Assembly (NCBI GenBank): GCA_947588685.1
Contig: CANPYM010000002.1
Coordinates: 25,964-89,963, forward strand
Direction: 5' to 3'
DNA: 64,000 bases
Origin: an uncultured Bacilli bacterium
GTDB lineage: Bacteria > Bacillota_I > Bacilli_A > RF39 > UBA660
Shown: positions 26,593 to 29,436 of the stretch, piece after piece
Numbering within the stretch: position 1 is the first letter of the stretch
Layout: each line of letters opens with the position of its first letter
Position numbers and translations under genes: made by a program
The notes under the pieces: model-generated
The model's input: the letters and a program-made list of their open reading frames with translations, nothing else
The model's database searches: none
What the model was told of the DNA's origin: nothing

Positions 26593-29436
26593 ATGTATAA
26601 TTTTAGTGTTATTGAAAAGAAATGGCAAAAAAAATGGTTGGATGAAAAGTGTTTTAATGTTAAAGTTGATCCAAGTAAAGAAAAGTTTTATATGCTTGTT
26701 GAGTTTCCTTATCCATCAGGTGTTGGCTTACATGTTGGACACGCTAGAGTATATACGGCATCTGATGTGCAAGCACGTTATCGAAAAGCTTTAGGATATA
26801 ATGTTTTATTCCCAATGGGTTGGGATGCCTTTGGAGCGCCAGCTGAACAATATGCGATTCAAAATCATATTCATCCTAAGGAAGCTGTTAATGAAAATAT
26901 CAAAGTTTTTAAAGGCCAAATGCAATCACTTGGTTTAGCTATTGATTGGTCTAGAGAATTTTCAACTACCGATCCTGAATATTATCGTTTAACGCAATGG
27001 CAATTTTTACAATTTTATAAAGCAGGTCTTGCTTATAAAGCCGAAAAAGAAATTAACTGGTGTCCAAAGTGTAAGACTGGTTTATCTAATGAAGATGCCC
27101 AAGGTGGTGTTTGTGAACGATGTGGTTCGAAGACGACCAAGAAGTTAAAAAATCAATGGGTTTTAAAGATGAGTGCATACGCTGATAAACTTATTGATGG
27201 TTTGGACGATACGGAGTTTTTGGATAAAGTTAAAATAGCGCAAATAAACTGGATTGGTAAAAGTATTGGGGCTTCTATTAACTTTAAATTAAAAGATACC
27301 GATGATTATCTTGAAGTCTTTACAACTAGAGCTGATACTTTATATGGTGTCACCTTTATGGTTGTAAGTCCTGAACACCCTTATCTTGAAAAGTATAAGG
27401 ATAAGATTCACAACTTAAAAGAATTACAAGCTTATCAAGAAGCCGCTCGTCATAAAAGTGATATTGAAAGAACGGATGCAACCCGTGAAAAAACAGGTAT
27501 TTGTATTGATGGCTTGACGGCTATTAATCCTATTAATAATGAAGAAATACCAATTTGGGTAAGTGATTATGTTTTAGCAGGATATGGAACGGGTGCTATA
27601 ATGGCGGTTCCTGCTCACGATGAAAGAGATTATGCTTTCGCTAAGAAGTTTAATATTCCAATCAGACAAGTTATCATTCCTGTTTATGAAGGGGATGACG
27701 CACCACGTCCTGATAAAGAAGAAACAAAACGTGAAGTTGTCGTCTTAATGGTAAAACATCCAACGGAAGATAAATATCTATGTGTTAAAAATTTAAAATT
27801 AGGTTGGAAGAGCCTTCTTATGGGTGGCATTGAAGAGGGTGAAACACCAGAAGAAGCCGCTAAAAGAGAATTAAGAGAAGAATCAGGATATATTAATTTT
27901 GACCATGATTGGACTTTTGACTTTATGTTTAGAGAAAAGTTCTATGCTGCTCATAAAGATGTTAATCGTAATATTACTAACCACATTATTGTTGGACACT
28001 TGTCAACTTTAACGCAAGGTGAGATTAGTGAGGAAGAAAAAAATACCCAAGAAGCATTCTGGGTTAGTGCTGATGAATTAATGGATACCTTAGACTTTAC
28101 AACCCATAAGAAAGTTGTCAGTGACTACTTTAATGGTGAGAATGCCTATGTTGGCGATGGTGAGATGGTTAATTCTGATATCTTAAATGATATTGATAAT
28201 AAAAAAGATAGTATCGACAAAATGATTAACTATCTAGAGAGTAAAGGTATTGGTAAAAAGACGACTAATTATCGTTTACAAGATTGGATTTTCTCACGTC
28301 AACGTTTCTGGGGTGAGCCAATTCCAATGGTTAATTGTCCTAAATGTGGATGGGTACCAGTTAAAGAAGAAGATTTACCGGTCGTTTTACCAGATGTTAG
28401 TGCTTATGAACCAACCGAGACGGGGGAAAGCCCACTTGCTAATATTAAAGAATGGGTTAAGACAACTTGTCCAAAATGTGGTGGCGAAGCCGAAAGAGAA
28501 ACCGACACGATGCCAAACTGGGCTGGTTCTAGTTGGTATTGGTTAAGATATATGGATCCTCATAGCGATAAAATAGCTAGTGATGAAGCTCTAAATTATT
28601 GGGGTAAAGTTGATCTATATGATGGTGGTATGGAACATGCGACAAGACATTTACTATATGCTAGGTTTTGGAACATCTTCTTACACGAACAAGGCTTAGT
28701 TCCTAATAGTGAGCCATTCTTAAAACGTATCAGCCATGGTATGATTTTAGGTGAAGGCGGCGAGAAGATGAGTAAGAGTAAAGGTAATGTCGTTAATCCT
28801 AATGATATGATTAGGGATTATGGAGCCGATGCCTTAAGAACATATGAGATGTTTATTGGTGATTACTCTAAAGATGCGGCTTGGAGTGAGAATGGCTTAA
28901 AGGGCTGTAAAAAGTTCTTAGACCGGATATGGAAATTACAAGATAAATTAAATAATGAAGAAGGATATACGAAAGCCTTAGAAACGATAATTCATAAAAC
29001 AATTAAAAAGGTAACTTTAGATATTGCTAATTTGGATTATAATACAGCCGTATCAGCATTGATGATTTTACTTAATGAAACGGATAAATGTGAGAGTATT
29101 ACCAAAAGTGATTATCGAACTATCTTAGCTCTTTTAAATCCTTTTGCCCCACATATCACGGAAGAATTAAATGAGATATGTGGCCTAGGAGAACCATTCT
29201 ATAATAGTAGTTGGCCTACTTATGATGAAGCTAAGACGAATGATGCTAGTTATGAAATGGTTGTTCAAGTCAATGGTAAAGTAAGAGGTAAGATTGAAGT
29301 TTCAACGGATACAACCGATGAAGAAATGAAGTCTTTAGCGCAAGATATTGATAATGTTAAAGTTCATCTTGAAGGTAAAGAAATTGTTAAGATTATCGTT
29401 GTTCCTAAAAAACTTGTTAATATTGTTGTCAAATAA
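26593..29436 (+). CDS. leuS: leucine--tRNA ligase with ~150-aa Nudix hydrolase domain insertion
   Basis: HIGH-region P.PSG.GLHVGHA, KMSKS. Insertion at ~27675-28135 carries the Nudix box [23 protein letters not shown] (27823-27891). Confidence 0.93.
   Translation: [947 protein letters not shown]

Follow-up and report, generated by a model that had tools for sequence, protein, structure and literature searches.

The 64,000-nucleotide stretch of DNA analysed here (the window; contig CANPYM010000002.1 of assembly GCA_947588685.1, positions 25,964 to 89,963 of the forward strand) comes from an uncultured Bacilli bacterium of the UBA660 lineage. It contains leuS, the gene for leucyl-tRNA synthetase (LeuRS, also called LeuS where the encoded sequence is meant), and within this gene lies, in frame, the coding sequence of a Nudix hydrolase domain. 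It was found that leuS is a single open reading frame (ORF) at 26593..29436 on the plus strand, whose product of 947 residues scored 937.6 bits against TIGR00396, the bacterial LeuRS equivalog (cut-off 548.4 bits), in two stretches with a break at residue ∼382. The NUDIX family (PF00293) was matched at residues 381–510 of the protein with 51.3 bits, compared with a gathering score of 21.1 bits. An initial annotation of the window, made from its letters alone, had pointed out that the protein carries an extra segment compared with a typical LeuRS of ∼800 residues, had read this segment as a Nudix domain belonging to leuS itself and not to a separate gene, and had named a Pfam search as a check. 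All of this was borne out: the 73 insert-less relatives aligned below were 799–806 residues long, the domain was in frame within the leuS ORF, and the excised segment alone gave 55.7 bits (E 6.8e-15) with PF00293, which was the sole significant Pfam match within it. The features of the locus are collected in Table 1.

Table 1. Features of the leuS locus, in positions of the window (aa, amino acid residues)
Feature	Position	Strand	Basis
T-box leader, Leu (CUU) specifier	26001..26200	+	Rfam RF00230, 137.9 bits (gathering score 93)
121-aa predicted membrane ORF, first gene after the T-box	26227..26592	+	ORF list; GGAGG ribosome-binding site upstream
LeuRS aa 1–362: N-terminal catalytic half (HVGH) and first part of CP1 (TTRADT, AHDERD)	26593..27678	+	TIGR00396, PF00133, PF13603 matches
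Inserted Nudix domain, A-type, aa 363–515, in place of 'GGDISK'	27679..28137	+	
Nudix box, aa 411–433	27823..27891	+	Translation
Family-specific X-loop-region motif, aa 450–459, 17–26 residues past the box	27940..27969	+	Invariant in alignment
LeuRS aa 516–947: end of CP1, second catalytic half (KMSKS), anticodon-binding and C-terminal domains, stop codon	28138..29436	+	TIGR00396, PF00133, PF08264 matches

The boundaries of the insert were obtained by alignment with 47 long relatives (939–952 residues) and the 73 short, insert-less ones. The insert was found to comprise 153 residues (363–515, nt 27679–28137), and the span of 27675–28135 proposed initially was thus essentially right. The short relatives read '...VIE-GGDISK-EAYxGDG...' at this place, and the six-residue loop 'GGDISK' of the editing domain, connective peptide 1 (CP1), is replaced by the Nudix insert, with the junctions ...QVII/PVYEG and ...YFNG/ENAY. 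The placement of the segment after the editing domain, as first described, had to be corrected. The Pfam editing-domain model was broken by the insert at model position 149 of 185, which indicated that the insert lies inside CP1 and not after it, beginning ∼17 residues past the catalytic-Asp motif of CP1. In solved LeuRS structures (Thermus thermophilus, Neisseria gonorrhoeae and Escherichia coli), a loop of 6–17 residues occupies the insert position (∼residues 363–373 in T. thermophilus). The comparison with reference LeuRS proteins that the initial annotation had called for therefore revealed no equivalent native segment, and a native origin of the segment was ruled out by the three solved structures together with the 73 close relatives.

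The synthetic and editing motifs of LeuRS were all present (HVGH at residues 47–50, TTRADT at 244–249, AHDERD at 341–346 and KMSKS at 725–729) and were invariant in an alignment of 62 sequences. The Nudix box, which had been described as a textbook one with all catalytic glutamates, was indeed an exact fit to the consensus GX5EX7REUXEEXGU, with E417, R425, E426, E429 and E430 in place. AlphaFold2 modelled the full protein with a mean predicted local distance difference test (pLDDT) score of 86, the insert reaching ∼87–95 and its linkers being short and confident, and the isolated domain was modelled at a pLDDT of 94.1. The α/β/α sandwich of the Nudix fold was recognised in the predicted structure of the insert. 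A structure prediction had been suggested initially, and by it the insert is confidently predicted to fold as a compact single-domain Nudix protein. When the insert alone was used as query, the nearest relatives were free-standing Nudix proteins of ∼160 residues, which were ∼50% identical and aligned end to end, indicating that the insert corresponds to a whole gene. Judged from sequence, CP1 is thereby shown to carry, in frame and in one of its variable surface loops, the equivalent of an entire Nudix pyrophosphohydrolase gene.

The insert is under purifying selection. The ratios of nonsynonymous to synonymous substitution rates (dN/dS) between the window and its closest relatives were 0.05–0.24 for the insert and 0.02–0.12 for the LeuRS body. 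The GC content of the insert was 0.355 and that of the rest of the gene 0.351, and the values at third codon positions (GC3) were 0.242 and 0.243, respectively. An intein, or another self-splicing or mobile element, was rejected, because no Hint, homing-endonuclease or transposase domain was present and the composition equalled that of the host gene. An assembly or gene-calling artefact was also rejected, since 47 protein clusters and at least 60 species genomes contain the fusion, which is under purifying selection. The window contained one leuS only, and no second member of the Nudix family of the insert. The single leuS, the Leu T-box and the invariant motifs indicate that the LeuRS carrying the insert is, as far as 64 kb can show, the housekeeping enzyme and not a spare copy. 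A divergent second leuS paralogue was rejected on the same grounds, the one leuS in the window being T-box-regulated and intact in its motifs.

Variation and spread of the Nudix module

It had been proposed in the initial annotation that orthologues in related genera be checked for the insertion. A scan of one genome per GTDB species with family-specific patterns, in which the X-loop-region motif served as search pattern, revealed relatives in 296 species genomes. Among the best 80 of these, 58 carried the domain within a leuS of ∼945–960 residues, two in a truncated leuS and 20 as a free-standing gene; relatives thus share the insertion in at least 60 of the best 80 species genomes, and it proved more widespread and more variable than had been foreseen. 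The leuS-embedded cases came from low-GC (25–42%) metagenome-assembled genomes (MAGs) of rabbit, mouse and rumen origin that were labelled Bacilli, Tenericutes or Mollicutes, and the 20 free-standing genes came from Candidatus Saccharibacteria. These labels were taken from the titles of the MAG records, and errors of binning or naming probably account for several of them (Clostridia, Muribaculaceae). One locus (L018, from a 'Bacilli bacterium' MAG of rabbit gut) was 99% identical to the window.

When 1.84 billion cluster representatives were searched exhaustively with phmmer, 368 matches were obtained. The best 150 of these consisted of 102 LeuS or LeuS fragments, 37 proteins of at most 210 residues and 11 other proteins. 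In a word-index search, embedded homologues were recovered with the full-length protein as query and missed with the segment alone. The scan of viral contigs yielded no family members, only generic Nudix-box matches with E values of 1e-7 or weaker, and the PADLOC defence models gave only generic matches of 20–24 bits, to the candidate PDC-S07. The family is an uncharacterised one, with KHP...W...GG and [FY][YF]A.HK..NR as its hallmarks, and its members are overwhelmingly tied to aminoacyl-tRNA synthetases (aaRSs).

Two subtypes of the insert were distinguished, the A-type, to which the window belongs, and the B-type, which is only ∼25% identical to the window insert; the Nudix box was intact in both. 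In a neighbour-joining tree of the LeuS bodies, calculated without support values, A-type, B-type and insert-less forms were interleaved, and B-type and insert-less bodies were up to 93–94% identical. Within one type, the divergence of the insert paralleled that of the body. The interleaving and this parallel divergence suggest that the none, A and B states behave like old alleles exchanged among relatives. Between A- and B-carrying LeuS, the identity was 0.61 in the flank just downstream of the insert, compared with 0.85–0.92 elsewhere. Three species were found to carry both types in tandem, in leuS genes of 1107–1118 codons (L049 4858–8211, L059 4852–8205 and L095 4882–8202). Here the A-type insert at the usual site is followed by a partly duplicated host hairpin ('...GVHINS / PLQV...'), which bears the B-type insert, and these echoes of the host hairpin around the second copy suggest an unequal crossover between A and B alleles. 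It was also observed that the LeuS of L049 and L059, which are more divergent, have KMGKR(F/Y)PKY instead of KMSKSKGN, an odd loop for a presumably essential synthetase.

The module was located at no fewer than four sites of LeuS (in window numbering, ∼205–220, ∼233–242, 361/362, which is dominant, and ∼580–640), with one to three Nudix copies per protein. Other enzymes were nested in related metagenomic LeuS as well. An RdgB/Ham1 domain was found at residues 984–1167 of P0163 (TIGR00042, 179 bits with an equivalog cut-off of 145), HAD phosphatase and Ser_hydrolase α/β-hydrolase domains were found in further proteins (P0276 654–808; P0209/P0269 ∼601–766), and a DUF559 Vsr/REase-like domain occupied residues 366–468 of P0229, at the same site 362. 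Each of these LeuS proteins also has the Nudix module, and in some lineages LeuRS seems to be a hub at which hydrolases are nested. P0229 showed Trp at many positions where Gly is invariant in LeuRS (FWLP for FGLP, ESWY for ETGY), which implied that UGA coding for Gly (genetic code 25) had been read as Trp, and hence an origin from Gracilibacteria or Absconditabacteria. The same Trp-for-Gly pattern was seen in ∼5% of the family domains.

The family was not confined to LeuS. Five clusters of prolyl-tRNA synthetase (ProRS; P0216 and P0289–P0292) nest the same Nudix family, with 100–142 bits against the family profile, at residues ∼390–535 between the anticodon-binding and C-terminal domains. These ProRS are of the archaeal type, their sources being DPANN-like archaea, and the nearest insert-less ProRS were labelled Nanoarchaeota or Woesearchaeota; K or D substitutions in the box were present in two of the five. 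In Saccharibacteria, a free-standing Nudix gene stood directly upstream of thrS and miaA in 12 of 20 loci and had unrelated neighbours in the others. The order in the former (L051, L063, L068 and L077, for example) and in L001 (5375–8344), L010 and L011 was a YgjV-like membrane protein, Nudix, thrS and miaA, with short Nudix–thrS spacers, and no T-box was found when the Saccharibacteria loci were searched for one. A further form consisted of stand-alone proteins of ∼275–310 residues, composed of a degenerate CP1 fragment, the Nudix domain and a tail from the host hairpin (P0018, that is L014 278–1105; P0151, P0154, P0156, P0164, P0167, P0168, P0173, P0205 and P0237; on contigs of <2 kb). They keep the pieces of CP1 that flank the insertion site, the T-rich motif being lost and HDxRD being partly kept. 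This stand-alone CP1–Nudix family may represent a trans-acting derivative.

Active-site conservation and the proposed role of the insert

The Nudix box was retained in all 48 close insert-bearing LeuS. For the wider family, 167 domain copies from 150 representatives clustered at 50% identity (the best 150 of the 368 matches) were inspected. The RE..EE glutamates were kept in 159–163 copies (∼95–98%), and the box Arg in 129, with Lys in its place in 10. A K-x-x-N-R motif ∼20 residues past the box was conserved in addition, with K in 157, N in 156 and R in 142 of ∼160 domains. The retention of the glutamates and of this motif argues for a conserved catalytic activity and against a purely structural or decaying module. 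The window protein did not reach the cut-offs of the curated Nudix equivalogs MutT (TIGR00586, 26.4 against 97.9 bits), NudI (NF012016, 28.2 against 95), RppH (NF001936, 24.4 against 118) and YtkD (TIGR02705, 21.6 against 154.4). B-type and free-standing members likewise stayed below the curated cut-offs; over all members scored, NudI, MutT, RppH, YtkD and NudB gave 20–29 bits, whereas 95–154 bits are required. In a phmmer search of the PDB, the best E value was 8e-5 and the match was confined to the box region.

In the window, the X-loop position ∼17 residues past the box is occupied by F (+17), followed by Y (+18); across the family, Y is found at this position in 83 copies and F in 67. It was reported that a Tyr ∼17 residues downstream of the box correlates with hydrolases of diadenosine polyphosphates (ApnA) (Dunn et al. 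1999, as summarised in PMC5389931); the residue is a marker of low specificity. ApnA hydrolases are among the structural neighbours of the insert, and RppH structures were found among its Foldseek neighbours with a template-modelling (TM) score of ∼0.7. The structural neighbours and the aromatic X-loop residue weakly favour dinucleoside polyphosphates such as diadenosine tetraphosphate (Ap4A) as substrates.

Ap4A and Ap4N arise chiefly from aaRSs, and both are removed by ApaH and YqeK (PMC13627108). Hydrolysis of Ap4A/Ap3A or of adenylates had been proposed as the function in the initial annotation, and it is weakly favoured by the ties of the family to three synthetases, by the ApnA hydrolases among the structural neighbours and by the aromatic residue in the X-loop. 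The best explanation that we can offer, though a tentative one, is that the insert is an active hydrolase held beside the synthetase, where it would clear dinucleoside polyphosphates derived from adenylates, or a related nucleotide, close to the enzyme producing them. Reaction of the aminoacyl-adenylate with ATP or another nucleoside triphosphate would give Ap4A, Ap3A and Ap4N, the most likely substrates, and, in symbionts with small genomes and a dependence on nucleotide salvage, the Nudix domain would return such dinucleoside polyphosphates to ATP and AMP. Tethering would provide 1:1 co-expression under the Leu T-box and would place the hydrolase by the source of its substrate. There is precedent in the HIT family for hydrolases that handle adenylate-derived products of aaRSs, namely Hint acting on lysyl-adenylate and Fhit on Ap3A; these enzymes differ from the insert in having another fold and in acting in trans, unfused to a synthetase. 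ApaH and YqeK, the dedicated bacterial Ap4A hydrolases, are proposed as functional analogues of the insert, but they have metallophosphatase and HD folds, respectively, and are encoded by free-standing genes without a physical link to a synthetase.

Several observations weigh against this explanation. The hydrolases nested in related LeuS (RdgB/Ham1, HAD, α/β-hydrolase, DUF559) are functionally unrelated, which suggests that LeuRS may simply tolerate insertions. Because the module is found at several sites, it does not seem to need a particular geometry with respect to the active sites, and its patchy presence among 93%-identical LeuS implies that it is dispensable. Moreover, LysRS and PheRS are among the strongest Ap4A producers, and LeuRS is not known to be one of them. 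A broader proposal is that the family is dedicated to aaRSs and constitutes an unrecognised in-cis activity for nucleotide clearing (or tRNA-end repair), by which by-products such as Ap4A are destroyed at source, and that it forms a cassette exchangeable among the leuS, proS and thrS loci of candidate phyla radiation (CPR) bacteria, DPANN archaea and reduced gut Bacilli. This we consider conceivable but doubtful. If the in-cis clearing were real, aaRSs would have a third catalytic function in addition to synthesis and editing.

The main competing explanation is that the insert has no mechanistic tie to aminoacylation and serves as an ordinary pyrophosphatase in metabolism or house-cleaning. 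In this case, the permissive loops of LeuRS, a large, essential and constitutively expressed protein, would secure its expression and spare regulatory sequence in small genomes. The other complete enzymes in related LeuS, the DUF559 domain at site 362 among them, would be expected from such a carrier, as would the occurrence of the Nudix domain at four or more sites and in varying copy number, the interleaving of none, A, B and A+B states among close relatives, and the varying length of the host loop among solved LeuRS structures. On the other hand, members of the same Nudix family occur in the class II ProRS of another domain of life and also beside thrS, roughly two in three family representatives are LeuS-embedded, and the stand-alone versions retain CP1 fragments. 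If the carrier were random, many host proteins would be predicted, which were not seen among the best 150 matches. We regard the carrier explanation as a serious one, yet on balance unlikely.

The Nudix domain could alternatively act on an RNA terminus, with the synthetase serving as a tRNA-binding platform, and remove a 5' triphosphate, an NAD or Np4A cap (as RppH does) or a pyrophosphate at the CCA 3' end. The dominant site inside CP1, the receiver of the tRNA 3' end, is consistent with this, as are the CP1 remnants around the Nudix domain in the stand-alone relatives and the fact that RppH and YtkD are among the best NCBIfam matches, weak as these are, with RppH also among the Foldseek neighbours. 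But the similarity to RppH and YtkD lies far under the cut-offs (24–29 against 118–154 bits), the other LeuS sites and that in ProRS lie away from the acceptor end, and we know of no modified tRNA substrate in these organisms. Action on RNA ends is thus improbable. Still more improbable is a selfish or neutral cassette that spreads in frame between leuS alleles by recombination without benefit to the host and persists in tolerant loops. Its patchiness among 93%-identical LeuS, the A/B type not following the body tree, the A+B tandems with their hairpin echoes, the dip in A-versus-B identity just downstream of the insert and the endonuclease-like DUF559 domain that one CPR LeuS has at the site of the insert would all fit such a cassette. 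However, the dN/dS values lie well under 1, conservation of the catalytic residues and of the family motif extends over 167 copies, the module contains no intein/Hint, transposase or endonuclease, its GC3 equals that of the host gene, and no copies were found on viral contigs. It is very improbable that the fold is a non-catalytic sensor, binding a nucleotide metabolite and tuning LeuRS editing or aminoacylation allosterically, because binding-only Nudix domains usually lose the box, which is perfect in the window and its clade, with the glutamates in 95–98% of copies. These last three explanations are less likely than ApnA clearing and the carrier.

Known free-standing Nudix hydrolases of (di)nucleoside polyphosphates (M. 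tuberculosis Rv2985/MutT1, T. thermophilus Ndx1, C. trachomatis CT771, A. aeolicus Aq_158 and human NUDT2) were only 16–23% identical to the insert; unlike them, the family of the insert has its own K-x-x-N-R motif and is nested inside aaRS proteins. The E. faecalis MutT/Nudix protein 2AZW, a free-standing structural-genomics entry of unknown function, was 23% identical, and no function was transferred from it. The insert resembles other extra modules of aaRSs, such as CP1 itself or the acetyltransferase (GNAT) domain of certain isoleucyl-tRNA synthetases (IleRS), covered by the NCBIfam exception model NF040702, in that an enzyme domain is added to a class I loop within one polypeptide. It differs from these in that the guest is a Nudix pyrophosphatase, that it lies within CP1, itself an insertion, and that its site, copy number and presence vary. 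In a 2026 survey of domain insertions, PF13603 was found only as an insertion and never as a host across 213 events (PMC13114784), whereas the LeuRS editing domain is the host here.

The initial annotation had known of no Nudix module in an aaRS, and none was found: none of the full-text literature searches turned up an account of an aaRS with a Nudix domain, and a 2017 review of the Nudix clan does not mention tRNA or synthetases. Such proteins are already present in public databases with PF00293 pre-computed, and one of them bears no more specific name than 'class I tRNA ligase family protein'. It is known that aaRSs can carry extra domains, as in IleRS with GNAT, but a Nudix domain nested in the editing domain appears to be undescribed. 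The same applies to the repeated occurrence of the family in LeuRS, in ProRS and next to thrS, in three groups of symbionts with small genomes. Few enzymes have been studied more thoroughly than the aaRSs, and the architecture of bacterial LeuRS is regarded as settled. If Ap4A-type alarmones were degraded where they are made, their turnover would be physically coupled to tRNA charging, which would account for alarmone control in organisms without ApaH or YqeK. If LeuRS were instead a general carrier of Nudix, RdgB, HAD and α/β-hydrolase domains, this would be a striking mode of genome streamlining and would provide a natural map of insertion-tolerant LeuRS loops, of use in engineering. The none, A, B and A+B alleles offer natural controls.

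Operon context and other features of the window

That leuS is a single in-frame ORF under a Leu T-box had been stated correctly at the outset, except that the first gene after the T-box is a 121-residue predicted membrane ORF and leuS the second. The specifier was read as GAA-CUU-A (Leu) from ...ATGAA CTT A..., and the T-box motif was AGGGTGGTACCGCG. The same leader was present upstream of six of the 11 other Nudix-leuS loci tested. The end of the membrane ORF directly abuts the leuS start codon, and this ORF is kept directly upstream of leuS, with 35–100% identity, in at least nine related loci (L018–L020, L039, L045, L054, L078, L081 and L086). It matched no Pfam family and showed no similarity to YgjV, the protein preceding the free-standing Nudix.

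Directly past the leuS stop codon, a perfect hairpin (AAAAGGAGTAC...GTACTCCTTTT) with a T-run was found at 29437–29465, before a convergent ORF at 29460–30632; it is probably a bidirectional intrinsic terminator. No rRNA or tRNA gene reached the Rfam threshold in the window. The only other Rfam match was a ribosomal protein L21 leader (RF00559) at 3414–3481 on the plus strand, with 50.6 bits against a threshold of 36.

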